From an uncultured Methanoregulaceae archaeon (lineage in GTDB: Archaea; Halobacteriota; Methanomicrobia; Methanomicrobiales; Methanospirillaceae), in assembly GCA_963717525.1 (NCBI GenBank), contig OY970343.1, positions 2,176,001 to 2,240,000 on the forward strand: a DNA stretch of 64,000 nt, written 5' to 3'. Within the stretch, counting starts at the first letter, position 1, and each line of letters begins with the position of its first letter. Position numbers and translations under genes: made by a program. This document shows, piece after piece, positions 885 to 64,000 of the stretch. The notes under the pieces were generated by a model that had not been told where the DNA came from, ran no database searches, and saw only the letters and a program-made list of their open reading frames with translations.

Positions 885-1136
885 GGAGGGGGTCGGGCGG
901 TGTACTTGAGGGTGATATCCCACGCCTTTTCATTTGTCCCGATCCAGCAGATTTACGAGAAAGATATACCTGACCCGATGCTCTGGATTGCAGTACTCAT
1001 GCGGCCGCATCGCATCAAAAAAGTGGTCCGACCCCCTCCCTGATAATTTTGTAAAAGGGCAAAATTTTGGATTTTTACGAGAGAGATACTCTATGTTTAT
1101 ACATGGAGGTGGTGGAGGGGGTCGGATGGTGTACTT
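885..1136. repeat. Locus A: three 23-bp GGAGGGGGTCGG-core motifs (+,-,+)
   Basis: 885-907 GGAGGGGGTCGGGCGGTGTACTT (+); 1017-1039 revcomp GGAGGGGGTCGGACCACTTTTTT (-); 1114-1136 GGAGGGGGTCGGATGGTGTACTT (+). Confidence 0.95.
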
Positions 1137-1660
1137 TGGAGATTTCGGCGTTCCGGGACAGATCGCTGTAATGGCCCTATAATGTCTGATCCCAGAGTCC
1201 AGTGAGTGCCCGGAAGCCCCCCGTACAGAACACCGCTAAAGGGGAAAAATAAGTCTATTTTACTGTGTTATTTTTGGATTTCACCCGAAAACTGGAAACT
1301 TTTTTCCTGCGGTGGACAAACAGATGCCAACAGGATGTTCACCAGCCATTATGGGGGGTAAACGGAGCTCGGATAGGGCCCGGATTGGGAGGGGGTGAGG
1401 GACGATTCCGGGCGGGACAAGGAATATGCGATCAGTATGAGGTTGCCCACCCCCTGATGGGGGTCGCTCGGCCGCCTCGTCGGGGCCTCGCTGGGCGAGG
1501 GAGGTTTCTGATTATGGCTTGCTAATTATGGTTCTGTCAAGTCTGCAGGAGTTAGAACCTTGTGCAGTCTCTGTCAAAAGTCGGGAGGTAAAATAACGAT
1601 TTTGCAATTCAAATAAATACTAATCTATATATGGATAGCAACCTCACGGGACATTTATTA

Positions 1661-3190: not shown

Positions 3191-3835
3191 ATGGTTGATA
3201 GGGCCAAAATTCTGGACGCCGTAAAAACGGCGATTGAAAAGGCGCCAAAGAGAAAATTCTCTGAGAGCATCGATATTACCATCAATCTCAAGAATATCGA
3301 TATGGCGCAGCCGAAAAATCGTATCGACGAGACGATTCTTCTCCCGAACGGGACCGGGGAAAAGACCGGTATCTGTGTCATCGGGAAAGGGGACATCGTC
3401 ACGCAGGCAAAGGATGCCAAGGTTGATCTGATCATCGGCCCTGAAGAGGTAGAACGGCTCGGAGGCGCACCCCGCGAAGCACGCAGGGTCGCCAGTACCT
3501 ACAAGTACTTCCTTGCCGAGACCGCGGTCATGCCGCAGGTCGGTCGTTTCTTAGGTCCCCGGCTTGGTCCGAGGGGCAGGATGCCGATGCCGATCACCGG
3601 GCAGACCGATATCCGCCCGATTGTCGAACGTCTCCGGAACTCGGTGAAGATCCGTACCAAGGATAAGACGGTCTTCTCGACAAAGGTAGGATCGACGGCA
3701 ATGACACCGGAGCAGGTCTCCGAGAACATCGATGCTGTTGTCAAACGTATCGAATCAGTCCTTGAACAGGGTCACTTAAACGTCCGCTCGATTTACGTGA
3801 AGACCACGATGGGTCCGTCCGTGAGGCTGGTATAA
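3191..3835 (+). CDS. rpl1: 50S ribosomal protein L1
   Basis: KRKFSESIDITINLKNID, LGPRGRMP, KTTMGP motifs. Confidence 0.98.
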   Translation: MVDRAKILDAVKTAIEKAPKRKFSESIDITINLKNIDMAQPKNRIDETILLPNGTGEKTGICVIGKGDIVTQAKDAKVDLIIGPEEVERLGGAPREARRVASTYKYFLAETAVMPQVGRFLGPRLGPRGRMPMPITGQTDIRPIVERLRNSVKIRTKDKTVFSTKVGSTAMTPEQVSENIDAVVKRIESVLEQGHLNVRSIYVKTTMGPSVRLV

Positions 3836-4684
3836 TGGCAGTCTATACCCACCACCTGCCCGCATGGAAAAAGGACGAGGTCGCGGCGATCAAGAAGCAC
3901 GCAAAGGAGTACACGCTGATCGGGCTTGTCGACATGTACGGCATCCCCGCGCAGCAGGTGCAGCAGATCCGGCGAAACCTCCGGGGCAAAGCAGTCATCA
4001 AGGTAACGCGGAACACCTTGATCGAGCACGCGCTCGGCGAGATTGGCGGGGACACAAAAGGTCTCACAAAATTCATCTCCGGCCATTCCGCGGTGATCTT
4101 CTCCAACGACAACCCGTTCAAGCTGTATCAAGCAGCTCGAGAAGACCAAGACCAAGATGGCCGCAAAAGCCGGCGAGACCGCACCCGAGGACATCGTTAT
4201 CGAGAAGGGCCCCACGAGCTTCAAGCCCGGCCCGATTGTCGGCGAGCTCCAGCAGGCCGGCATTCCCGCGGCGATTGAAGGCGGCAAGGTCAAGATCAGG
4301 GAGACGAAGACCGTCGTCAAGAAAGGCGCGGTCATCTCGGCGAAACTTGCCGATGTGCTTGTCAAGCTTGACATCAAGCCCATGGACGTGGGGCTCGCCC
4401 TCCAGGCAGCCTTCCACGACGGCACCATCTACGAGCCGTCCGTCCTCTCCGTAGACGAGACAAAGCTCCTCGCCCAGCTCCAGCTTGCCGGTATGCAGGC
4501 GTTCAACCTGTCGGTGAACGCAGCAATCCCGACCAGGGAGACCATGGTGCCGATCCTGACGAAGGCCGTCAGGGATGCACGCGGTCTTGCGATCGAGGCA
4601 GCAATCTACGAGAAAGACGTTGTCGATGCGATTATTGGTAAAGCCCAGAGAGAAAGCCAGGTGTTGAAGACCCTGGTAAAATAA
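3835..4684 (+). CDS. rplP0: 50S ribosomal protein P0/L10, split by +1 frameshift at ~4129
   Basis: N-part PAWKKDEV..NPFKLY; C-part GPTSFKPGPIVGELQQAGIP in another frame; removing one base at 4128-4129 restores KLYKQLEKTKTKMAAK. Confidence 0.95.
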
Positions 4685-20814: not shown

Positions 20815-20946
20815 ACGGTTGTGTAAGTCCAGAAAAGTGCAGTATGCTTACTGACTCTCTGTAATCCCAAAGCCTAAGTTTTGAGGCCGTGCCAAAAACG
20901 GCACGTCGGACTTACATCTGTCAGCACCCTGTTAAAAAGTGCTGTC
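20815..20946 (-). ncRNA. structured 5' leader of rps15 (probable S15-Methanomicrobia-type r-leader)
   Basis: Several helices upstream of rps15: GUGCCG-UUUU-UGGCAC hairpin, UGUAAGUCC/GGGAUUACA, CUGAC/GUCAG. Confidence 0.65.
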
Positions 20947-23295: not shown

Positions 23296-23862
23296 ATGAA
23301 AAAGACAACCAACACGATCCGGTTTGAGACCCGCGTCCCGTTGAGCGAGGTGATGAAACGCAACCCGATCATGATCAGCATCGAGGCCAATGTTGCAAAA
23401 GCGGCAAAGGCCATGTGCAGTGAAGAGGTCGGGAGCGTTATTATTCTCCGAAGGAACGAGCCTATCGGCATTGTTACCGAGGAGGACATCAACTGCAAGG
23501 TGGTGGCAAAGGATCTCAAGCCAAGTACAATCCAGGTGAGTGCAATCATGAGTACGCCACTCATTACGGTGAGTGCGGACAAGACGGTAGTCGACGCAGC
23601 CCAGATGATGGTCAAGCACAAGGTCAGAAGACTCCCCGTGGTCGACAAGAGCGGCAAGGTCATCGGTATTGTGACCGTACGGGATCTCCTGACCGTCTCA
23701 AACGAACAGAACGCGCTCCTGACCGATCTCATTGAGATCAACCGCGAGGACCATATCGAGGTAGGCATGTGCAACCGCTGCAGTAAGATGTCTGATGATC
23801 TTAAGCGTGTGGACGGCGTCCTTCTCTGCCCCCGCTGCAGGGAGGAGGACACCCTTACATGA
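23296..23862 (+). CDS. CBS-pair protein with C-terminal Zn ribbon
   Basis: Two CBS repeats; CNRC...CPRC; SD AGGAGG. Confidence 0.9.
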   Translation: MKKTTNTIRFETRVPLSEVMKRNPIMISIEANVAKAAKAMCSEEVGSVIILRRNEPIGIVTEEDINCKVVAKDLKPSTIQVSAIMSTPLITVSADKTVVDAAQMMVKHKVRRLPVVDKSGKVIGIVTVRDLLTVSNEQNALLTDLIEINREDHIEVGMCNRCSKMSDDLKRVDGVLLCPRCREEDTLT

Positions 23863-24608
23863 AAACGGCACGGGATTTCATGCTTGAGATTCCTGTGCTC
23901 ACGTTTCATGACGGGATAACCAAGGCACGGCAGATCTTAAGAGACGACCGGTTCCGCGAAGCCTACGTCACCGGCGTAAAAAAAGACCTGCTCGGGTATA
24001 TCGATATCACCGATGCCCTGAGGGTGACCGCTACGAAATCGAACGTGACCGTTGAAGGATTTGTCAAGGAGGCCGCTTGCGTTGGCCCTGAGGCATCCAT
24101 TGAGAGCACTGCAAAGTTCATGCGGGAATTTGCCACGGACAGCGCTGCGATCATCGATCCCTGCCGCCATATCCTTGGCGGGGTGCTCCTCTCCGACCTG
24201 TTCCCGGTCATCATCTCGCGGAGCGAGCTTTCGGGGCGGGTGAGCTCCCGCATGTCAAAGAAGATCACCACCGCTGACCCCGCCGACTCGCTCCAGCAGG
24301 TCTACGCGAAGATTGTAGAGAGCGGGTACACGGCATTCCCGGTTATAAAAAAGCGGCGGCTGGTGGGCCTTATCTCCCGCAGGGACCTGATCCGGTCGGG
24401 GGGCGTGCGGTCGGCGATTGCCCAGAACAGCACAAAAAAGGTCGGGGATCTGATGACGACTGAGGTGGTGACGGTCCCGGGCAGTGCACTGCTGTCCGAG
24501 GCGGCCCGCCTTATGGTAGATAACGATGTAAGCCGGCTTCCCGTTGTCGACGGGGATGCCATGGTTGGGATCATCGATCGCCATGACGTCCTTACCGGGC
24601 TTATATAA
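23859..24608 (+). CDS. CBS domain protein (two pairs)
   Basis: AFPVI..GLISRRDL, RLPVV..GIIDRHDV. Confidence 0.9.
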   Translation: MKTARDFMLEIPVLTFHDGITKARQILRDDRFREAYVTGVKKDLLGYIDITDALRVTATKSNVTVEGFVKEAACVGPEASIESTAKFMREFATDSAAIIDPCRHILGGVLLSDLFPVIISRSELSGRVSSRMSKKITTADPADSLQQVYAKIVESGYTAFPVIKKRRLVGLISRRDLIRSGGVRSAIAQNSTKKVGDLMTTEVVTVPGSALLSEAARLMVDNDVSRLPVVDGDAMVGIIDRHDVLTGLI

Positions 24609-24722
24609 CACGGGCCGGCGAAGAACAGGATATGATAGGCCGGCCGGGATGTAAAGCACCCCGTCCTCATGGAGAAATGACGGGTGCAGCACAGGCCAGC
24701 AGGCAGCAACAGGAGGTTATTC

Positions 24723-25664
24723 ATGCACCGGAACGGGCAGGGCGCCAGACAGGGTGACCGGCTCCTGAAAATGCGGGGAAAACTAGACCGTGGCCCGGTC
24801 GAGTTCAAATCCCATATCGTACAGCAGGAAGGCGAGGTGATGGCGATCGCGACACGGGATGTCATATCCGTGCCGCCGACGCAGAGCATCATCAGTGCAG
24901 TGGCGACAATGACGGAATGCGGGTTCCGCCGGCTACCGGTCACCGATGCCGGGACAAAGAAGCTCCGGGGGATTGTCACGTCGGGCGACGTGATCAATTT
25001 CATGGGCGGGGGCGACAAGTACCGGCTGGTCAGGGTCCGGCATAACGGCAACCTGTGTGCGGCGGTCAACGAGAGCGTCCGCACCATTATGACCGCACAG
25101 CCCCAGACCCTCCCGCACGATGCCCATATCATCGATGCGCTCCGGATCATCGTCGGCAAAAAGATCGGGGGGCTCCCGGTTATTGCAAACGATGGTACCC
25201 TTGCCGGTATCGTGACCGAGCGGGACGTGCTACGGATGCTTGCCACAGAGCACAGTCCGCTCTTTGTTGAGGATGCGATGAGCACCTCCCTTCGGGTGAC
25301 TGCCCCGGACAGCCCGATAGCTGCAGTCACCAAAGACATGACCCGGTTCCGGTTCCGCCGGCTTCCCGTCGTCAGCGACGACGTGCTCTTTGGCATCATC
25401 ACCGCGACCGATATCATGCGGTACCTGGGGAGCAGAGAGGTCTTCTCCCGTCTTGTGACCGGTGACATCGCAGAGGTCATGAACCTCCCGGTGCGCACGC
25501 TCATGGCCGGCAGCCTTTTCACCACTACCCCCCGGACGCCCGTCAACGAGGCAGCCCGGGAGATGCTTCACAAAAACATCGGGGCGCTGCCGGTCATCGA
25601 AAACTCGCGCCTTGTCGGGCTTGTGACGGAATTCGACCTCGTGCGGGCGTTCTCCGAGGAGTAA
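24723..25664 (+). CDS. CBS domain protein (two pairs)
   Basis: FRRLPV..GIVTSGD, GGLPV..GIVTERD etc.; start after AGGAGG. Confidence 0.9.
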   Translation: MHRNGQGARQGDRLLKMRGKLDRGPVEFKSHIVQQEGEVMAIATRDVISVPPTQSIISAVATMTECGFRRLPVTDAGTKKLRGIVTSGDVINFMGGGDKYRLVRVRHNGNLCAAVNESVRTIMTAQPQTLPHDAHIIDALRIIVGKKIGGLPVIANDGTLAGIVTERDVLRMLATEHSPLFVEDAMSTSLRVTAPDSPIAAVTKDMTRFRFRRLPVVSDDVLFGIITATDIMRYLGSREVFSRLVTGDIAEVMNLPVRTLMAGSLFTTTPRTPVNEAAREMLHKNIGALPVIENSRLVGLVTEFDLVRAFSEE

Positions 25665-25669
25665 ATCCC

Positions 25670-26522
25670 ATGCCAGTCAGCTCCCTCGTCGCAGGTGATA
25701 TCATGAGCAGCCCGGTCTTTGCCGTCTCCCCCCAAGACACCCTGGCTCACGCCCGGAACCTGATGGTGCGCCATAAGATCTCCCGGGTCCTAGTCATGGA
25801 TGCGGGAACTCTTACCGGGATACTCACGAAAAAAGACATCGGGTACCGGCAGCAGCGGGGGGCAGCATGGCGAAGGCGCCCGGCCGACCAGATCACGGTG
25901 GCCGAATATGCGACGCCGCACCCGGTCTGCGTCGCGCCCGGGACGCTTGCAAAGGCTGTCGCCGGTATTTTCATGGAAAAAAACATCGGGGGTGTCCCGG
26001 TGGTGGACCACGGCACAGTCACGGGTATCGTTACAAAAAGTGATCTGATGAAGTCCGCCCTGAGTCACCGGCCTGGAAGGCACGGTGCAGGACGTGATGG
26101 AGGATGCAGAGACGGTCAACCGCTGGCACTCGCTTGCCCATGTAGTAGCGCTCATGAAGGAGCGGGACAAAAAACTGGTGGTGACCAACAACGATGGATC
26201 GGTCGCCGGCATCATCACGGAGACGAACCTTGCTTTCCATGATGAGGACCGGAGACGATCCGGGGGGATCCTTTATGAAGAACCCGGAAAAAGACATGAA
26301 CATACCGGCGCCGGGAGCGCACCGGACGCTCCCGGGAACATCCCGGTAACCGCGGGCGACATGATGACGAGCCCGGCAATAACGATCGCGCCGGTGAGCA
26401 CACTCCAACTTGCGATCGGACTGATGCACAGCGAACAGGTCAACAACCTTGTTGTCGTCGAACACAACACCCTTGTGGGGATTTTAAAACGTGATGATAT
26501 CATAAAGGAAGTGGCGAAATGA
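25670..26522 (+). CDS. CBS domain protein, frameshift at ~26063
   Basis: Two ORFs each with CBS repeats; removing one base gives KSALVTGLEGTVQDVM. Confidence 0.85.
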
Positions 26523-27295
26523 CAAAAGAACTGTTTATTAAAGATATCATGGCAAAACCAACGACCATATCCAAATCCGCAAAGATAACCGAGGCGCTCG
26601 ACAAGATGCTTGACGAGGGAATAGACCCCCTCATCGCGCTCCATAATTCGTCTGTTGTCGGCACGGTATCCCGTGAGGCCATCGCGGAGAAGCTGGGCAG
26701 CAGGCAGAACACTACGCTTGCGCCGGCTGCCATCCACGTGGCAAGTGTGGTCAAGGAGGATTTCACGAGTGTCTATCCTGACGAGACCGTGAATGTACTC
26801 ATCCCCCTGCTCCAGCAGTATAAACTGGTGGTTGTGTACGACAGCGACCACAACCTGATCGGGCAGGTGACTGCCATTGACCTGTTGAAGAAGTACCCGT
26901 ACGAAGGCACCATCACCGAAGCGATCGACCGTGCGGTCACGATCGATGCCGAGGAGCGTGTCGTCCACCTCCGGCGACGGATGCTGGACGATGCGATCTC
27001 CCGGTTTGTCGTGACCGCAAACGACAAGATGACCGGTATCGTGACCGAGACCGACGTGGCGGTGGCGATGCGGAAGTTCCGGGAGACGGTAAAAGATCAT
27101 CACCAGGATCACCAGATCCGCAACCTGCTGGTTCGGGACATCATGAGCGCCCCGCTGATCTCGGTTGAGGCCGGGGCGGGCTACCGGCAGATTGTCGACC
27201 TGATGGTGGCAAAGAATATCAGCACGGTGCCGATCACCGAGAAGGGAAAACTCACCGGCCTCGTGACCCGGCGGTCACTGGTCCGTGCCCTCTGA
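26519..27295 (+). CDS. CBS domain protein (two pairs)
   Basis: IKDIM, GIVTETDV, VRDIM, GLVTRRSL. Confidence 0.9.
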   Translation: MTKELFIKDIMAKPTTISKSAKITEALDKMLDEGIDPLIALHNSSVVGTVSREAIAEKLGSRQNTTLAPAAIHVASVVKEDFTSVYPDETVNVLIPLLQQYKLVVVYDSDHNLIGQVTAIDLLKKYPYEGTITEAIDRAVTIDAEERVVHLRRRMLDDAISRFVVTANDKMTGIVTETDVAVAMRKFRETVKDHHQDHQIRNLLVRDIMSAPLISVEAGAGYRQIVDLMVAKNISTVPITEKGKLTGLVTRRSLVRAL

Positions 27296-27355
27296 CGGTC
27301 CGGCCTGACCCCCTCCTTTTCCCTCTTTTCAGTGAAGGGACCTGTCAGAAGATCC

Positions 27356-28128
27356 TTACATGAATAACCGGATCAGGTAGTACAGCCCGACCACCGTTCC
27401 GATGGCGACAATGGTCCACCGGAGCGGCCCGGGTCGATCCTGCCGGCCACATGCCCGCCGATCGCCCCCCCGATGAGCGCCCCTGCCGCCATAATGATCG
27501 CAAGAGGCCAGATAACGAGCCCGGAGAAGAGAAAGAAGACCGCGGCGGCGACATTGGTGGCAAGCGATATGCACTGCTTGAGCGCATTGAGCCGGGTGAG
27601 GGTGTCATCGAGGAAGAGCCCGAGCACGGCAAGGTTGATCACGGAGAGTCCCGGCCCGAAATATCCGCCGTAGACTGCGGCGAGGCCGACCGGAAGGGCC
27701 GCGTTCCGGCACCCCCTTCCCTCGGTACCGTCGTGCCCGGTATGCCGGCGGATCCAGTCCCGGACCCGGTCCTGGACTGCAAGCAGAGCGGCGGCAAGGA
27801 GGATCAGGAACGGGACGAGGATGTGGAAGACCTGTGCGCTGATATACAGGAGAAGAATGCCCCCGACGAGGCCACCGATGATCCCGGCCGGGATGAGCAT
27901 CAGCAGCCGCTTTCTTTGTCCTGCGAGATCTTTTTTCTGGGCCAGCGCACCGCCGAGATACCCCGGGCAGAGAGCGACCGTGTTGGTGATGTTTGCCACG
28001 ACCTCGGGAACACCGAGCGCCACGAGCGCCGGAAACGAGATCAGGGTGCCCCCGCCGGCAAGGGCGTTTACCATGCCTGCGGCAGCAGCTGCCAGTCCTG
28101 CAAGTGCAAGTTCGGTTCCGGACAACAT
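27356..28128 (-). CDS. sulfite exporter TauE/SafE family protein, frameshift near 27430
   Basis: [31 protein letters not shown]-terminal helix LRWTIVAIG.. in another frame. Confidence 0.88.
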
Positions 28129-28169
28129 GCGTTTTTCCCGTATGATTGTACCTGTGAGGGCCGGTGGTA

Positions 28170-28736
28170 TTATCCCAGCGTCCCGATGAGTGCCTGTGCG
28201 TCCATGACACGGACGCCGATGTTTGCCATATCGCGGACGTTTGCCCGGTGGATCTCATCCGATTGTGCGCCGGTCGCATCATCCACGAGAATGACCGGGT
28301 AGTTGTACGCGATGGCATCAAAGACCGTGGTGCGGATGCAGTTGGGGGTCTGGACGCCGGTTATTACGAGCACGGTGATGCCGAGCGTGCGGAGCATGAG
28401 GTCAAGCTCGGTGCCAATAAATGCGCTCATCCGGGCCTTTTCGATAACGTACTCGCCCGGCAGCGGCCTGATTTCGTCGATCTCCTGAGCTCCTGCCGAA
28501 CCGGCAACGGCAAACGGGTGCCGGTTAAAAAGATCTTTTCGGGTAATCTCGACATCTGACCCATCGCTGCGGTGGACCCGCAGGACATGAAAGACCGGGT
28601 AGTTCTTCATCCTGAAGAACGCGAGCACGTCCCGGATCTTCGGGATGACGTTTTCTGCCTGGGCAACCCGGAGCATCGCCCCCTCACGGACAAAATCGTT
28701 CTGCATATCGATGATCAGCAGTGCGGGATGTTCCAT
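28170..28736 (-). CDS. isochorismatase-family cysteine hydrolase
   Basis: [21 protein letters not shown] catalytic triad. Confidence 0.92.
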
Positions 28737-28820
28737 GTATGATCATCTAAGACAATGGTGAGCAGGTAATAATGCTTGTGCGCTGGCCGGGGATCTGGCG
28801 AAGGGGCGGGAGACCACACA

Positions 28821-29070
28821 AAGTACACCGCCCGACCCCCTCCACTGCATAAATCCTGTTCCCGTTACCGGTTGAAGTAATTTATCGTCAGAAAAAATGC
28901 CGTTTTTCATGCCAGGGGCAGCAGGAATTCATGGAGGGTTGGAGGGGGTCGGACCACTTTTTTTGTCCGGGCGCCGGCATCAGGGACCGGAAAAAATGCG
29001 AAATAGCGACGTAAATAGTGGGATAGGGCATGGGACAGCTATCGCAGAAGTACACCATCCGACCCCCTCC
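28821..29070. repeat. Locus B: three 23-bp GGAGGGGGTCGG-core motifs (-,+,-)
   Basis: 28821-28843, 28941-28963 and 29048-29070 are exact reverse complements of 885-907, 1017-1039 and 1114-1136. Confidence 0.95.
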
Positions 29071-29429
29071 ATAAGGGGATGAGACCTGATAACGTGTATC
29101 TTATCTTGTGAAGCCGGTGGTCTATACATTAAGTACTTTGATAATCTTATCTAGAAGTCTGCAGGCCGCCTTATTCTCTTCTATCATTCCCCATATCCTG
29201 TAAGCCCCCTACGCACTTTCCCAATTATTCTATTCTCAGGAAACAAACTCATATTCACGGTCACATATTCAGAAAGGGTACGAAGCTCGGCCTCTATTGG
29301 GACAGTCCGGTTCCGGTGGCTGGTTCTTCCCACAACACTTATTACCCCACCCCTACCATAGTATAAAGCACCATTCATGGAGCAGCGGATTATCCGTTGC
29401 GAGTGTCTGAGAAGATGCGAGATTCCTCT

Positions 29430-29514
29430 GTTGAGGTAGCCAAGCCTGGTATGGCGCAGGTTTGCTAAACCTGTGTCCCCTTGGGACTCGAGGGTTCAAA
29501 TCCCTCCCTCAGCG
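29430..29514 (+). tRNA. tRNA-Ser (GCT)
   Basis: Acceptor GTTGAGG/CCTCAGC, anticodon arm CAGGT-TTGCTAA-ACCTG, long variable arm, GGTTCAAATCC T-arm, discriminator G. Confidence 0.97.
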
Positions 29515-29549
29515 CTTCAAAGAGACAATCTCAAAATCGAGGGGATTGG

Positions 29550-30011
29550 ATGGCACAGGAAGAAGAAATAAGATACTTTGTACGGATTGGCACGACCGAT
29601 CTGGACGGCACGAAGTCGGTGCGGGTAGCACTGACCGGCATCAAGGGTGTCGGCAGGCATTCCTCCACGGTCATCTCACGGATGGCCAAGGTTGACGAGT
29701 ACGCGAAGCTCGGCCTCATGGACGAGGAGTCAGTCAACCGGATCCGCGCCGCGGTTGAGAAATACTCCGGTAACATCCCGCAGTGGATGGCAAACCGGCC
29801 AAAAGACCTCTACACCGGCGAGACCAAGCACCTTATTGGTGGCGACGTTGCGCTTGCCCGCGACGAAGACATCAACATGATGCGGAAGATCCGCTGCTAC
29901 AAGGGCATCCGGCACGAGACCGGCCAGAAAGTCCGCGGGCAGCGCACCAAGTCGACCGGCAGGACCGGCATGACTGTCGGTGTCAAGAAGACCAAGGAAG
30001 GAGGCCAGTAA
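29550..30011 (+). CDS. rps13: 30S ribosomal protein S13
   Basis: [26 protein letters not shown]. Confidence 0.98.
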
Positions 30012-30014
30012 GCC

Positions 30015-30572
30015 ATGGGATACCCAGGCAAGAACCACAAGTCTTACCAGACGCCCAAGCGCCCGTGGGAGAAGACCCGGATCGAGGAAGAGACCCGGCT
30101 TGTCATCGAGTACGGCCTGCGCAACAAGCGCGAGGTCTGGAAGGCACAGAGCCACTTACGGAAGTACCGTAAGGCCGCCCGTGAACTGCTCGCCCTTATG
30201 TCCAACAGCGCTGATCCGGCGTTCTTCGATGCGAAAAAGACCGAACTTATCAGCCACATGCAGCGTATGGGCCTTCTCGGTCCCGACGCGGACATCGACA
30301 ACGTCCTCGCCCTCAAGACCCCGGCCCATCTCGAACGCCGGCTCCAGACCCTTGTCTACCGGAAGGGCCTCGCCCGCTCGCCGAAGCAGGCACGCCAGTT
30401 CGTCACGCACGGCCACATCGCGATTGCCGGCCGGCGTGTCACCATCCCGGGATACCTCGTGACCCGCGGGGAAGAGACCGGGATCTCCTATTACGGAACA
30501 TCCCCGTTCCAGGACGCTGCCCATGCAGAAAGGACCCGGATCACCAAGCCCCAGGGCGCAGGAGTGAATTAA
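30015..30572 (+). CDS. rps4: 30S ribosomal protein S4
   Basis: [27 protein letters not shown]. Confidence 0.98.
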
Positions 30573-30573
30573 G

Positions 30574-30972
30574 ATGGCGGCAAACGACAAGGAAAAGTGG
30601 GGCATCGCACATATCTTTGCCTCCTTTAACAACACGATCATCACCGTCACCGATCTTTCCGGTGCAGAAACCGTCACCAAGTCGAGCGGTGGCATGGTCG
30701 TCAAGCAGGACCGGAACGAAAGTTCCCCGTACGCGGCCATGCAGATGGCGGCAAACGTCGCCGCAGTAGCCCGCGAGAAGGGCATCGTCGGTGTCCATGT
30801 GAAAGTCCGGGCACCCGGCCAGGGCAAACAGCGCAGCCCCGGGCCCGGCGCCCAGGCAGCTATCCGTGCACTTGCCCGGGCGGGCATGCGCATCGGAAGG
30901 ATTGAAGACGTTACACCTGTCCCGCACGACTCATGCCGTCCGAAGGGTGGCAGACGGGGAAGGAGAGTGTGA
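30574..30972 (+). CDS. rps11: 30S ribosomal protein S11
   Basis: [32 protein letters not shown]. Confidence 0.98.
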
Positions 30973-31802
30973 TGGAGATCGAATTCGCGAGTCTGGACGA
31001 CACCCTTGCACGATTCACGCTCTCAGGAGCGAAGCCCGGATTTACCAATACGTTCCGCAGGGCAATGATCGGCGAGGTGCCGACCCTTGCCATCGAGGAT
31101 GTGCGCATCTACGACAACACGAGCGCGCTCTTCGACGAGATGCTGGCGCACCGCCTCGGGCTTATTCCCATCAGGACCGATCTTACCAGTTATTCGACTC
31201 AGGACACCTGTTCGTGCGGGGGGGCAGGCTGCCCGTCCTGCACGGTGACGTTCACGCTCAGCGTTGAGGGCCCCAAGCTGGTCACGTCAAGCGACCTCAT
31301 CCCGCAGGACCCCAAGGCTGCGCCCGTGAACGACAACATCCCCATCGTGAAGCTCGTAAAAGGGCAGAAACTGGTCATCGAAGCGCGTGCTGTCCTCAAC
31401 AAGGGCAAGGTGCACGCAAAATGGCAACCGACCCTCGTGTGCGGGTACAAGAATCACCCGATCATCACAATCAGCCCCACCTGCGACGCGTGCGGGATGT
31501 GCGTGGACGAATGTCCCCGCACCATCCTTGCCGTCAAAGGCAAGAAAGTCGAGGTCATCGAGGGCAAGCTTCCCGACTGCTCCATGTGCAGACTCTGTGA
31601 ACGGGCCTGCATGGCGAGCGGGATCGGGGAGGAACCCGCGATCAGGATCTCCGCCTCGCCCGACCGGTATATTTTTGCGGTCGAGGGAGACGGGTCGCTG
31701 CCCGCAAAAGAGATCATGGTTCAGGCGCTTTCCTACATAAAGGAGCAGGCAAACGAGCTGGAGAGACAGACAAGCGAGATTTCAGGGGAGGAAAAGAAAT
31801 GA
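30972..31802 (+). CDS. rpoD: RNA polymerase subunit D (Rpo3) with ferredoxin-like Fe-S domain
   Basis: EVPTLAI, DEMLAHRLGLIP, HAKWQP; CDACGMCVDECP and CSMCRLC. Confidence 0.97.
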   Translation: MEIEFASLDDTLARFTLSGAKPGFTNTFRRAMIGEVPTLAIEDVRIYDNTSALFDEMLAHRLGLIPIRTDLTSYSTQDTCSCGGAGCPSCTVTFTLSVEGPKLVTSSDLIPQDPKAAPVNDNIPIVKLVKGQKLVIEARAVLNKGKVHAKWQPTLVCGYKNHPIITISPTCDACGMCVDECPRTILAVKGKKVEVIEGKLPDCSMCRLCERACMASGIGEEPAIRISASPDRYIFAVEGDGSLPAKEIMVQALSYIKEQANELERQTSEISGEEKK

Positions 31803-44810: not shown

Positions 44811-46468
44811 ATGGTCACCCGTATCCGGCGGTATGCGCAGATCATCGATATCCTGTGGAAGTACGGTTTTGGTATTGCACTGGAGAAAGCGTTCCCGGGC
44901 AAGACCCGTTTCCGCCTTCCCGGGACGGAGCAGGCGCAGCCGGACCAGTCCACGGTGTATGAACGGGTGCGTCTCGCTCTTGAAGAGCTCGGGCCCACTT
45001 TTGTGAAATTCGGGCAGATCATGAGTACGAGGACGGAGATCTTCCCCCGGAGCTCATCACCCAGCTCAAGAAACTCCAGGATCATGCAAAACCGTTGCCG
45101 TTCTCTGAAGTCATCGGCGTGATACGGCAGACCTGCCCGAACCTGGAAGACTGGTTCTGCGAGATCGACGAGGCGCCGGTAGCGTCGGCCTCGATCGGGC
45201 AGGTTCATCGCGCGGTCCTCAAAGACGGGACCGTTGTCGCTCTTAAGGTCCAGCGCCCCGGGATACCGGAAGTTATCGAGAACGACCTCGCCATCCTCCA
45301 GTCCATGGCCGAGAGGATCGAGGCAGTCTTTCCCGAAAGCCGGATGTACAACCCCGCAGGCCTCGTGCAGGACTTCGCCACCCAGATAAGAAAAGAACTA
45401 GACTTCACCCGCGATGGCAGGAATGCGGAGCGGATGGCTCGCAACTTCCGGGACGTGCCGGGGATCCACTTCCCGAAGATCTACTGGGAATATTCATCCT
45501 CCCGGCTGCTCGTCATGGAGTTTGTTAAAGGTGTAAGGATCGACAATGTCGAGGCGATCACCGCACAGGGAAGCGACCCGCACGATATTGCGGTCCGGGG
45601 CTTCAACGCGTACCTGAAGATGATCTTCGAGGACGGATTTTTCCACGGTGATCCCCATCCCGGCAACCTGCTCATTTCGGAGATGGGAGACCTAGTCTTC
45701 CTTGACTTCGGCATTGTAGGGGTATTGCGCCCGGAGAAAAAGCAGCTCTTCATCAACCTGCTCTTTGCCATGACGACCGATGACGTCGACATGATCTTAA
45801 AGACGCTCGAAGGCTTTGGGATCTTTGTCGCCGAGGAAAACCGCGAAGCGCTCCGGGACGACCTCTACCTCATGCTGCACGATTTCGGCGGTGGGGACGA
45901 GATTGCCCAGTTCAATTTCGGCCTCATGATCAACGAGCTCACCGAGGTGATGCGGCGGTACAGCCTCAAGGTTCCCATGAGCCTTATGCTCCTGTTAAAG
46001 ACGCTCGTTATGGTCTTTGATGTGGCCGTCAGGCTTGACCCCAAGTTCAGCTTTGGCGGTGAAATTACGCCATACCTGCGCAAGCTTGCTGACTCCAACG
46101 TGCTCTCTGCCGGCTACATGAAGCGGGCGTCCAATTCGCTCCTTGAAGCGGTCGATGCGGCCTTTGACCTGCCCCGCAACGTAAACCTGATGCTCAAGCG
46201 CCTCTCGACCGGGACCGTCCGGCTCGAAGTGGTCGATACTGACTTAAAGAAACTCCAGATGGCACTTGACCGGGCCAGCGACAAGATCATGATAGGTCTC
46301 GTGGTGGCCGCGCTCGTGGTCGGGTCATCACTCGTGCTCCAGGCCTCGGCCATCGCCATACCAAAGGAGGTCATATGGGTTGCCATACTCGGTTATACCG
46401 CGGCGGTGCTCTGCGGGTTTTACGCGATCTATCATGTCATATTCCTGAAACTGCGGCTTGAGCGGTGA
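44811..46468 (+). CDS. AarF/ABC1/UbiB family kinase, frameshift at ~45046
   Basis: LGPTFVKFGQ, ASASIGQVH, KVQRP, HGDPHPGN, DFG; two C-terminal TM helices. Confidence 0.93.
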
Positions 46469-61103: not shown

Positions 61104-64000
61104 TTGCACATCACAGAGCTGGAGATAGATAATTTCAAGTCTTTTTCAAAAAAGACAAAAATTCCCTTTTTAGAGGGTTTCACCGTAATATCAGGCCCGA
61201 ACGGCTCCGGGAAGAGTAATATCATCGACTCAGTCCTTTTTGTCCTGGCACTTTCGAGTTCCCGCAACCTGCGTGCCGAGAAACTCACCGATCTCATCAA
61301 CCTCAACTCCGGGAAAAATACGGCTGAGGTTGCCATCGAGTTTTCCGACGGGACAAAGATCCGGCGCCGGATCAAACGGACCGGCAACGGTTATTACAGC
61401 TACAACTACCTAAACGACCGGCTCTGCAAGCAGAGCGACATTGTCGACCACCTCGCAAAGTTCGGTATCATCCCGCATGGCTACAACGTCGTGATGCAGG
61501 GCGACGTGACCCGGATCATGGAGATGAGCGATTTCGAGCGCCGGAAGATCATCGATGAGATCGCCGGCGTCTCCGAGTTCGATACAAAAAAGCAGCAGTC
61601 GCTCTCCGAGCTTGATGTAGTAAGAGAGCGCATCGAGCGCGAAGAACTCCTGCTGATCGAACTTACCAAACGGGCAAACGAGCTGAAAAAAGAGCGCGAA
61701 CACGCGCTCGAATACCAGAAGTGGCAGAAGGAGCTCGGCTTCTACCAGGGGTGCCGGTCCGCCGCCCAGCTCCGCGGCAAGGAGAAGGAGAGGGCTACGC
61801 TCCTTGCGTCTGCCGAAGAACAGAAAATTAAAATCTCCCGGATCGAGGCCGACCGGGGCATCGAGGAGAACGAACTCTCCTACCTCGGGGCCGACCTTGC
61901 AGATATCGATGAGCTCATCAACAAGAAGAGCGGGCCCGACTACCTGAAGCTGATAGCAGACCTCGAAGAGGCAAAGAGCGGGATCAAGCTCGCGGAGCAG
62001 ACCATTGCACGGCTCAAAAAGGACAAGGAGACAAACCTCGAAGGGATCAACCGGGTCTTCGCGGACACAAAACGGGCCGAGACCCGGGTCGCAGAGCTCT
62101 CTGACCAGATCCGCACGCTTTCCATCGACCGCACGAACATCGCCATCGAAGTGGCAACCTCAAAAGCGCAGCTCGAAAAGATCGAGACCGAGCTCCACCA
62201 GTACTCCTCAGACACGGAGGAGGCCCGGCAGAAACTCTTTGCCCTGATGGAGGAGGCGGAAGCAAAGAAGGGGGAGCGCTCCGCGATCCTCCACCAGCAG
62301 GACATGCTCATCGAGAAGAGCCGGATGCGCACGAGCGAACTCGAACGCCTGATCGCGCTCCAGAAGCAGCTTGACGAGGAGTATACGGCAAAGCAGGGGC
62401 AGCTTGCGGAGAACGAAGGGGCGGTGGCCGAACTTTTGGACCGGAAAAAGAGATCGACCGGAATCTCTCCGAACTGGAGAGCAGCCTCTTTGCCCAGCGT
62501 TCGTCCCTTGAACGGCTGCGCGGGGAGATGAAGGACACCGAGCAGGATGCGATCCGGCTCGAAGCCGCACAGCAGGCCCGGGGCGAGTCCGGCGGAAAGG
62601 CGATCGAGGCGGTCAAGGCCATAGAGGGCGTCCATGGCACCATTATGGAGCTGGGCTGTACACCCCCAGAGTACGCGACTGCGCTCAATATCGCTGCGGG
62701 AAACAAACTCCAGTTTGTCGTCTGCGATACCGACCAGATCGCGGCCGATGCGATCCGGTACTTAAAAGACGAGCGGCTCGGGCGGGTTACGTTCCTCCCG
62801 CTCAACAAGCTCAAACCCCCGCAGCTGCCCCCCATAAAGGAGGCCGGTATCATCGATTACGCGGTCAACCTCCTCGACTACGATCCTGTTTATGACAAGG
62901 CATTTGCCGTTGCACTTGGGGCAACGGTCGTGGTCGATACGCTCGACCGGGCCCGGAAACTGATCGGGAAGTACCGGATGGTTACTCTCGAGGGAGAACT
63001 GCTGGAGAAGAGCGGGGCGATGACCGGCGGCTCGGCAAAGAAACCGGTGAAGGGTTTCGGGGCCGCCGTTGACGATGAGATCGTCCGGATCCGGTCGCAC
63101 CTTGCCGAACTTTCCGGCGAGGCCGCAACGATCGAGGCGGGCGTCAAACGCATGACCGAAGAGGTAGATGGCAAACGGGCGCTCCGTAACGGGATTGACC
63201 AGGACATGGCCCGGGCCGGGGCACTCACCGAGGAATTTACCCGCAGGTTCGAAGCGATCACGGTCGAGAAGCAGACGATCGAGACGGCGGTCGCCCGGCA
63301 GAGAGAGGAGACGGGCACCAGCGCGGGAGAACTGTCCGCTCTCGAAGGGGAACTCGACAAGATCACCGAAGCGATCAACCTGATCACAGCCCAGATTGAC
63401 GGTATCAAGAAAAAGCTGGACGACACCAATATCCCTGCCCTCACCGACCAGATGGAGAAGAAGAAGAAGGAGATCGAGGAGGCAGAACGGCGCCTCAGGA
63501 ACAAGGAGGCGGACATGAACGATGCCTCCCGCGAGCGCCAGCACTTCACCGCCCGGACCGGGGAACTTTCGGAGGAGCGCACCCGGCTGGACGAGCGCAA
63601 CCGGCAGATCGATGCGGAGGTGGCCGGGTCAAACGGGCAGATCGATGCCCACAAGGCCGTGATCGCAGAACTCGAGGAGAAACAGAAACAGTTCTCAGGA
63701 GAACTCGAAGGCCTGCGGAAGAAACGGGCCGACGTGTCCGGCAGCATCCATGCCTCGGAAACAAAACTGATCAAGTTCGACGCGGACAAGGAGCGTTTCA
63801 CGATCCAGCTCACCGCCCTTGAGGAGCGGGCTCAGGCGCTTGCAAACGAGATCGCCGCCCTCGTGGCCATTGTCGGGGAGGTCGAGACCGACCTGACGCT
63901 CACCGAGATCGAGAGGAAGATCGCTGATGCCGAGCTTGCGCTCCACAAGATCGGCGCCGTCAACATGCTCGCCATCGAGGAGTACGAGAAGATCCAGCGG
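61104..64000 (+). CDS. smc: chromosome segregation protein SMC (partial; frameshift in A-run ~62447)
   Basis: GPNGSGKSN Walker A, Q-loop VMQGDV, hinge GVHG..GRVTFLPL..GAMTGG, VNMLAIEEY at window end. Confidence 0.97.

Follow-up and report, generated by a model that had tools for sequence, protein, structure and literature searches.

A helically phased three-site DNA array in Methanoregula, with a candidate binding protein, points to an undescribed DNA-looping system

Introduction

The parS-IHF-ParB complex of plasmid P1 reportedly has arms of polar boxes flanking a central bending site and is said to tolerate insertions of whole helical turns. The element described here, an array of G-string sites and core motifs, likewise has polar sites around a central core and arms that change in whole-turn steps, but it has three sites, two cores and several dispersed chromosomal copies, and no ParB- or IHF-type partner has been identified for it. 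Bacterial parS is a single 16-bp palindrome near oriC. With parS/ParB as loader of Smc-ScpAB, as described in the available parts of three papers (PMC5120986, PMC11840125, PMC13722703), the array shares several origin-leaning copies and a candidate gene linked to condensin, but it differs in being a 250-bp phased array spread to 0.9 of the replichore, in a binder that is not ParB and in that ScpB was not found.

Among archaeal systems, AspA of pNOB8 is a winged-helix protein that acts on a 23-bp palindrome and is encoded in an operon with parB-parA (PMC5120986, in part). Points of likeness to AspA and to Sulfolobus SegB are an archaeal dimer, a site upstream of the dimer's own gene and a higher-order DNA complex (PMC5120986, in part), whereas the protein linked to the array, X-T, is a predicted alpha/beta sheet protein and no ParA gene was found among the recurrent neighbours. 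TrmBL2 is a roadblock of Thermococcus Smc-ScpAB with AT-rich motifs at tens of loci, and the available part of that study reports the roadblock and no ParB-type loader (PMC11840125). Here the likeness lies in the proposed role, a DNA-bound protein positioning archaeal condensin, and the difference in an array that is strict, GC-rich, polar and phased and in a protein unrelated to TrmBL2. What archaeal centromeres consist of and where they lie is named as an outstanding question in the accessible text of PMC5120986. How euryarchaeal chromosomes are marked for condensin or segregation is likewise an open question, to which the present locus brings a strict DNA architecture and a named candidate protein.

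The gal loop is a GalR-HU repressosome. Like the lac and gal loops, the array has sites about 100 bp apart, phase dependence, a central position for bending and a promoter by one site (PMC1919473 for lac, available part), but most of its copies have no adjacent promoter, its three sites are polar and its candidate binder is no LacI/GalR-family protein. It also resembles archaeal oriC in its G-string and in three boxes with an inverted pair, and one array subfamily has true origin recognition boxes (ORBs), but the conserved bases of the array lie 3' of the G-string rather than 5', and it has neither an unwinding element nor an adjacent cdc6. The array did not qualify as a member of any of the families compared (ORB origin, parABS, inversion system, MC1 site, Rfam), and it would work in the manner of phased loop complexes. 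A literature search, thin on subscription journals, returned no description of the element or of the 167-aa protein family linked to it; the part of PMC13343696 that was available mentions Methanoregula for its IS content only.

Results and discussion

Locus B and its surroundings

The window is a stretch of 64,000 nt from an uncultured Methanoregulaceae archaeon (contig OY970343.1, positions 2,176,001 to 2,240,000) whose genome, G000, is one contig of 2.29 Mb and 87% complete. An initial annotation made from the letters alone had placed a motif triplet at locus B, and we found all three sites as claimed: s1, an L-type G-string site (29048-29070, minus strand), s2, of S type (28941-28963, plus), and s3, again L (28821-28843, minus). 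Read on the minus strand, the triplet repeats the L>S<L> layout of locus A, also as annotated; array A spans 885-1136 on the plus strand, with s1 at 885-907 (+), a core at 950-966, s2 at 1017-1039 (-), a second core at 1072-1088 and s3 at 1114-1136 (+). Unnoticed in the annotation was a conserved core motif in both spacers of B. Measured from the centre of the spacer 1 core (29001-29017, plus), the distances are 37 bp to s1 and 44 bp to s2, which is the commonest geometry. For the core of spacer 2 (28880-28896, minus) they are 52 bp to s2 and 44 bp to s3, both arms exceeding the shortest class by one turn, which gives B the form (37, 44)(52, 44). With up to 3 mismatches allowed, the L 23-mer matches the 2.29-Mb genome 13 times, and the same genome reversed or complemented yields no match; the locus B triplet is real and far beyond chance. 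Short-read contigs confirm the B sequence. In runs X1 and X9, one or the other of which could have yielded this DNA, a single contig reaches from 26500 to 31500, and run X11, which belongs to a different study, has a contig covering 28435-29378 with zero differences from the B region.

The gap around B, annotated as gene-free and about 690 bp long, measures 693 bp from the start of the isochorismatase gene (28736) to tRNA-Ser (29430) and holds no credible gene. On the s3 side stands the isochorismatase-family gene (28170-28736, minus), which also adjoins the array in G020, G003 and G115; on the s1 side, 360 bp from s1, stands tRNA-Ser(GCT) (29430-29515, plus), head of the rps13-rps4-rps11-rpoD operon. 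The neighbouring stretch singled out as AT-rich (about 29090-29270), which is not counted within the array, does reach 60% AT but is not distinctive: 29% of 432 intergenic gaps of 300-1500 bp reach as much in some 180-bp window, so that it must be considered ordinary.

Anatomy and helical phasing

The element is about 250 bp long and consists of three GGGGGTC-based sites of alternating orientation with one quasi-palindromic core in each spacer. Its anatomy was derived from 137 distinct elements, reduced to 98 at 62% spacer identity; in 71 of the 98 the third site is exact. Isolated pair hits from distant genera (G177, G191, G206, G269) appeared fortuitous and were excluded. The site consensus is (G)GGGGTC-G-(G/C)-R-Y followed by a variable tail, the first six bases and R-Y being imposed by the search pattern. 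The S tail is a variant of the middle site, carried by 14 of 71 middle sites and by 1 of 142 outer ones. Lineages differ in the 3' half of the site, and several site variants occur within one genome; site identity is 0.64-0.69 within one array against 0.46 between arrays. The G sites are polar, and the core, WTTTTACGACG(G/T)RAAAW (also given as TTTTACG-W-CG(G/T)RAAA), is a looser, odd-centred quasi-palindrome that scores at least 9 in 104 of 142 spacers compared with 11 of 426 shuffles.

Core-to-site arms of the 71 non-redundant triplets fall into the classes 37/49/60/71, 45/57/68, 41/52 and 33/44 bp, with steps of about 11.3 bp. All four arms are periodic (best periods 11.2-11.9 bp, phase concentration 0.82-0.89) and each moves separately, and AA/TT/AT dinucleotides oscillate around the core at 11.2-11.4 bp. 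A helical repeat near 11 bp is expected for small loops in supercoiled DNA. Divergent sites in the 98 elements are spaced 96-103, 109-113 or 117-124 bp apart, within the range of about 94-124 to which the search patterns confined them, and convergent sites mostly 103-109, 131, 141-143, 150-155, 163-167 or 177 bp. Such phased arms are the signature of a bent, protein-held double-stranded complex; oscillation of loop strength with the helical repeat is a hallmark of repression loops (PMC1919473, in part). By gene context the 98 elements comprise 39 tandem, 21 convergent, 18 divergent and 18 unclassed cases and 2 within ORFs, and the 78 classed gaps (39/21/18) are close to the genome background of 210/104/118, array placement being indifferent to promoters.

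Alternating sites could also belong to a structured RNA, or to a single-strand switch, with s2 paired to either s1 or s3, and they do allow stems of at least 14 bp, the predicted fold pairing s2 with s1. We regard this explanation as extremely improbable: the folding z-score is -1.5, with 15 of 200 shuffles equally good, the identity of s1 and s3 (0.67) equals that of s1-s2 and s2-s3 (0.64, 0.69), the S tail is uncompensated, 11-bp steps are meaningless for a hairpin, and no Rfam family matches at gathering score.

Copies in the genome and the A-B pair

G000 contains five full triplets, at 1,858, 2,040, 2,177 (A), 2,205 (B) and 2,242 kb, and three imperfect ones, at 224 kb with a flipped third site and, in degenerate form, at 1,898 and 278 kb. 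Since A and B thus belong to a set of eight dispersed copies, the idea that they form a paired unit did not hold up. In one of the degenerate arrays (G000:C1 1897526-1897830) the middle site overlaps a short G/C hairpin, and doubled sites like it are also present in G004, G115 and G073. A GC-rich palindromic repeat of about 60 bp, likewise with 8 copies in G000 (window 1440-1505, 1,858.1 kb and about six more places), occurs near two of the arrays, at 300 bp from A and at 50 bp from E. The genes spt5 and rpl11 are normally adjacent; here array A and about 11 kb of accessory genes (L038:1450 to window 2400) lie between them.

The annotation had further suggested that the segment between A and B might be invertible. 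In its general form this would make the arrays recombination sites that invert the 28-kb A-B segment or, shufflon-like, their short spacers, which we find scarcely credible, even though A and B, as inverted repeats pointing at each other, are up to 90% complementary over a 31-nt stretch. Four contig sets (contigs drop rare variants) contain no A/B hybrid junction, and synteny gives the same answer, G020 and G115 both keeping A-rpl11...B-rps13 in one arrangement. The asymmetric core geometry is not mirrored in triplets of fixable orientation, which disfavours spacer inversion; the sites are polar rather than dyads, and no recombinase was found among 30 neighbour proteins scanned or around the G000 copies.

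Relation to the replication origin

The oriC of G000 consists of three canonical ORBs upstream of cdc6 at approximately 2,014.5-2,014.9 kb. Its cdc6 genes are at 2,013 kb (main) and 1,427 kb, and the turns of the skew agree with a single origin at about 2.0-2.2 Mb and with a terminus at about 860 kb, circular closure being assumed. B, at 2,205 kb, is 190 kb from oriC, and neither its gap, searched for TCCAnnGGAA-N5-GGGG at up to 3 mismatches, nor any other G000 array has an ORB, so the proposal that A and B mark the origin was not borne out. It had drawn on the genes enclosed by the two arrays, and oapC (PF09845) and an adjacent small GTPase gene do lie there. Haloarchaeal OapA, named for its position in Haloferax, is now assigned to vesicle formation (PMC10927574, available part). 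With oriC at cdc6, no ORB at B and OapA tied to vesicles, oapA/oapC do not mark an origin here.

It is very unlikely that the arrays are auxiliary or dormant origins, or ORB-derived landing sites for Orc1/Cdc6. Array sites and ORBs do share a G-string, oriC also has three G-string boxes, and the arrays lean to the origin half; in addition, a subfamily in G061, G066, G071, G074 and G019 has a full ORB that shares the G-string of s3, together with a second, divergent ORB-like box. ORBs are nevertheless absent from B and all other G000 arrays, and an ORB-like 5' flank occurs at only 7 of 276 site positions in the 98 representatives. Array spacers have 49% GC, like other intergenic DNA, compared with 40% at oriC (triplet B has 47% AT, oriC 60%), and hence lack an AT-rich unwinding element; no cdc6 stands beside B, and the skew fits one origin. 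In the ORB subfamily (L221-L235) the two divergent ORB-like boxes lie about 30 bp apart in spacer 2, with several such arrays per genome, making them candidate mini-origins or Orc1 sinks. Far from oriC, G000 also has four lone near-perfect ORBs, each with a TATAAA-like sequence immediately after it (G000:C1 502169, 1293016, 1487036, 1806063); two lone ORBs lie in a duplicated block with a TBP-like gene. These lone ORBs are possibly Orc1-controlled promoters or integration marks.

A linked protein family

The commonest neighbour of the arrays is a 167-aa protein without a family name (family X), and usually one array per genome abuts the promoter of its gene. This family is order-specific, with members in 45 of 48 other Methanomicrobiales genomes and in none of the 202 remaining genomes sampled from the phylum. 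The family tree covers 79 members, a subset of the family hits (the 30 best genus or family hits, hits taken from ten selected genomes, some neighbours of arrays and three paralogs of G000, the G000 X-T not being in the tree), and splits 100/99 into clade T, with 46 rows, and clade N, with 33. A phased site pair lies upstream in 37 of the clade T rows and a promoter-like box in 40, compared with one weak site pair and no box in clade N. The two clades also differ in charge, T being basic (net charge +6.8, pI 9.5; 43 rows) and N acidic (-6.5, pI 5.0; 30 rows), and many clade N genes are followed by a small hydrophobic ORF. The clade T gene points away from s1, which lies about 5-25 bp from a conserved ACCACCAAGGATTTAT box that we take to be BRE plus TATA. 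In G000 the X-T gene (2,241,577-2,242,077, minus strand) is split over two frames, in an assembly with other indel errors; on its upstream side lie the promoter box and then the home array C (G000 2,242,192-2,242,476), 37 kb from B, with an rRNA operon beyond. Family X has 1-16 matches per genome across the Methanomicrobiales, and acidic clade N paralogs are located at G000:C1 1546492, 1688723 and 1697885.

Arrays and X-T largely occur together. When strong X hits (E <= 1e-65, a threshold set after seeing the data, with a profile from array-adjacent copies) were compared with array pairs over 79 genomes, G000 left out, 50 genomes had both, 22 neither, 1 arrays only and 6 the protein only, so that 72 agree, these being related genomes and not independent. 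Among discordant genomes, an array accompanies a stop-bearing T copy in G032, and G073 combines degenerate arrays with a broken copy. On an SMC tree of 30 genomes the array/X-T state requires at least four changes, and past scpA no X remnant, site pair or box was found in six of seven negative genomes and a short seventh. The system is dispensable, as 22 of the 79 genomes are without both parts. It shows natural gain and loss in one genus, and the acidic paralogs offer built-in controls.

An AlphaFold2 model of X-T is a two-lobed alpha/beta structure (pLDDT 94, pTM 0.84). Modelling supports a homodimer, with ipSAE of 0.68 against 0.13 for the best control (a level that 20 of 30 solved homodimers attained, compared with 1 of 23 monomers), 100% contact agreement between runs, pLDDT of at least 88 and a predicted interface at residues 76-107. 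No Pfam, NCBIfam, PHROGs or PDB sequence matched X-T above noise; DUF1508/YegP (PF07411) matched 1 of 11 members at E 0.0025 and 18.1 bits, below the cut-off of 22, and with an atlas score of 0.83 it is a lead. In a structure search with the whole model the best Z was 6.9 (rmsd 2.6 over 82 residues), with no Z of 8 or above, KA1 giving Z 6.5 (2.7, 78) and TBP Z 5.8 (2.7, 72). As this likeness to KA1/TBP-like and CYTH-like folds is only middling, the fold does not show DNA binding. The candidate binder of the array is probably the basic X-T clade, although X-T could instead be only the target gene of the array. MC1 was rejected as binder, PF05854 having 0 matches in G000 (87% complete).

Distribution, conservation and mobile copies

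The exact two-site pattern occurs in 72 stretches in 185,579 species, 71 of them labelled Methanoregula, Methanoregulaceae or Methanomicrobiales and the last a 1.9-kb contig labelled Methanothrix whose flanks are Methanoregula-like. A relaxed pair pattern was found in 46 of 71 other genomes of the genus (1 to 21 pairs) and in sister genera in 1 of 1 and 4 of 7 genomes, and gave only single matches in 6 of the remaining 194 genomes, with 2 of 274 in a reversed control. By these counts the element is confined to Methanoregula and two sister genera. Its range is wider than the strict site pattern indicates, owing to variation between lineages in the 3' half of the site; the strict L pattern misses G020, for example, where degenerate orthologous arrays are present.

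At the tRNA-Ser/rps13 position of B, a full triplet in the same orientation is found in 4 of 26 loci examined (G020, G003, G115, G022), while G073 retains a remnant and the triplet of G066 lies further upstream. The spacers of the four orthologous arrays are only 33-52% identical to B, and the G-string, cores and spacing class are kept. Several other array positions recur between genomes, among them the position upstream of rpl11, where arrays orthologous to A were found. Sites, cores and phasing outlast spacer similarity, as neutral decay would not leave them, and the element is under selection.

The arrays could alternatively be part of a mobile or selfish module, acting as enhancer or scaffold of a MITE or IS with X-T as accessory factor, chromosomal copies such as B then being old insertions retained through drift or incidental use. 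Five genomes (G077, G019, G034, G110, G107) do carry the array inside a 332-336-bp MITE with ends of about 14 bp. Both MITE ends were present in 10 of 14 and 7 of 9 copies tested, and the 10 two-ended copies among the 14 include 3 with perfect and 2 with near-perfect 8-bp target duplications; also in line with mobility are a copy number of 0 to 21 pairs per genome and the greater likeness of sites within an array than between arrays. In G000, however, matching MITE ends enclose unrelated cargo and none of the five full arrays has them, the home of X-T beside scpA is fixed, and the persistence of sites, cores and phasing is unlike neutral decay. Neither an exact site in 2.9 million viral contigs nor a relative of X in these contigs or in 72,556 plasmids was found, which likewise speaks against the module, and we consider it quite unlikely as a general explanation. 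A viral or plasmid origin of the element was rejected on the same null results, and B and the other four full G000 arrays were rejected as MITEs for having no terminal inverted repeats with target-site duplication. In some lineages a MITE has captured the array and spread it, and this capture and the ORB fusion look like later events on an older element. A MITE-borne array or remnant is inserted right beside the oriC ORBs in G077 (L058:4415-5150) and G019 (L066). G000 also has a MITE family of about 250 bp, with about 17 copies by blastn, that shares ends with the array-carrying MITE and has other cargo (G000:C1 343118, 433293, 579314, 587779, 1055620, 1877776).

Condensin genes and the lean to the origin

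The smc gene (61104-64000, plus) runs past the end of the window and is followed by scpA (G000 2,240,536-2,241,366). X and scpA share a contig in 44 of the 49 genomes listed with a strong X hit, and in 43 of these 44 X is convergent with scpA and within 12 kb downstream, at a median distance of 3 kb across variable cargo; in multi-copy genomes the X copy on the scpA contig was chosen, and some such copies are outside the tree. Second X-T copies elsewhere are found beside the gene for NOG1 GTPase or a tRNA methyltransferase. The X-scpA link may be plain synteny, since an rRNA operon follows the same interval in G000 and also in two genomes without X-T. ScpB was found in 0 of 31 genomes of the genus and not in G000, and ParB_N (PF02195) in 6 of 72, three of these six being without array pairs. 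Membership of parABS was rejected, there being no PF02195 in G000 (87% complete) and the G sites being polar rather than palindromic 16-bp parS. A motif scan of G000 detected three deviant Walker A proteins, none near X-T.

In nine single-contig genomes, 46 of 60 arrays are in the origin-proximal half, at a mean of 0.33 of the replichore (excluding three loci that had no scored pair, and with the sizes of three genomes rounded). This lean is only moderate: the other 14 are in the terminus half, some near the terminus, with a spread to 0.9 of the replichore, and G061 has only 4 of 8 on the origin side. G000 controls have no such lean, neither MITEs (7/17, 4/8, 3/10) nor gaps (208/432). A KOPS-like polarity was rejected, as it holds for 6 of 7 arrays in G000 but for 37 of 58 over the nine genomes, which is nearly random.

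Proposed function

The array is likely to be a phased protein platform tied to X-T. X-T binding, looping and autoregulation are what we infer from anatomy, phasing, conservation, distribution, gene linkage and charge shift, all of them observed computationally. We tentatively favour a complex in which X-T binds the array as a phased loop or wrap that is autoregulated at home and is an anchor of chromosome architecture elsewhere, perhaps via SMC-ScpA. Three polar G-string sites (+,-,+) and two cores would all lie on the same helical face, the A/T tracts that separate them being bendable and in phase, and the bound protein would close two short loops (about 90-170 bp) or wrap the DNA. The binder would be an X-T dimer that recognises the G sites or the cores, or possibly both kinds of motif, and the core may be occupied by a further factor that bends the DNA. 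At home, where the array abuts the X-T promoter, binding would cause autorepression, and orphan copies such as B would be position-independent architecture anchors in the origin-proximal half, most likely serving as stop or loading marks for SMC-ScpA condensin, or else as topological barriers. The SMC link is the weakest step of this model, and we hold it to be doubtful.

The same anatomy and the same binder might instead form a purely local repression loop of the lac/gal type with no SMC role, silencing X-T and, at each orphan, the promoter beside it, which at B would be that of the isochorismatase gene or tRNA-Ser/rps13. The abutment of s1 on the X-T promoter box is consistent with such a switch, as are the location of 3 of 8 G000 copies upstream of translation operons (rpl11 at A, tRNA-Ser/rps13 at B, rRNA at C) and the helical-repeat dependence typical of repression loops (PMC1919473, in part). 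Against this, 21 of the 78 classed copies, including G000 copy E, lie between convergent gene ends, array neighbours are functionally unrelated, the strong operon faces s3 at A and C but s1 at B, and the triplet at the rps13 position is limited to 4 of the 26 loci. We consider a purely local loop somewhat unlikely; even on this plainer reading, a phased three-operator loop served by a new protein family would be a novel type of regulatory element in archaea.

Taken further, the architectural reading would make this a centromere- or CTCF-like system of Methanoregula, in which a basic X-T paralog beside smc-scpA and its arrays load or stop a condensin that works without ParB and ScpB. It would have arisen when a paralog of an acidic protein found only in Methanomicrobiales became basic, with MITE capture re-patterning chromosomes and ORB fusion in one subfamily. 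As a whole we rate this scenario as rather unlikely, and if true it would provide the first case in a methanogen of a site that is defined by sequence, positions SMC and has a dedicated protein. The looping or insulating structure proposed in the initial annotation is retained as protein-bound looping or insulation, the best reading of the array, and its placing of the arrays near the origin survives as the lean to the origin half (46/60); the A-B unit, the origin marked by oapA/oapC and the inversion do not. On present sequence comparisons the array and X-T point to an undescribed DNA-looping system.

Other features of the window

Several genes of the window (rpl10, a CBS gene, ubiB and smc) are split over frames (3793-4684, 25670-26522, 27424, 44811-46468, 61104-64000), and all four read sets show an extra base at 27424, which reveals indel errors in the assembly. 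A run of five or six tandem genes for CBS-domain proteins (23296-27295) adjoins the oapA/oapC genes, and a ribosomal leader of known type, S15-Methanomicrobia (RF03137), is located at 20861-20943 on the minus strand.
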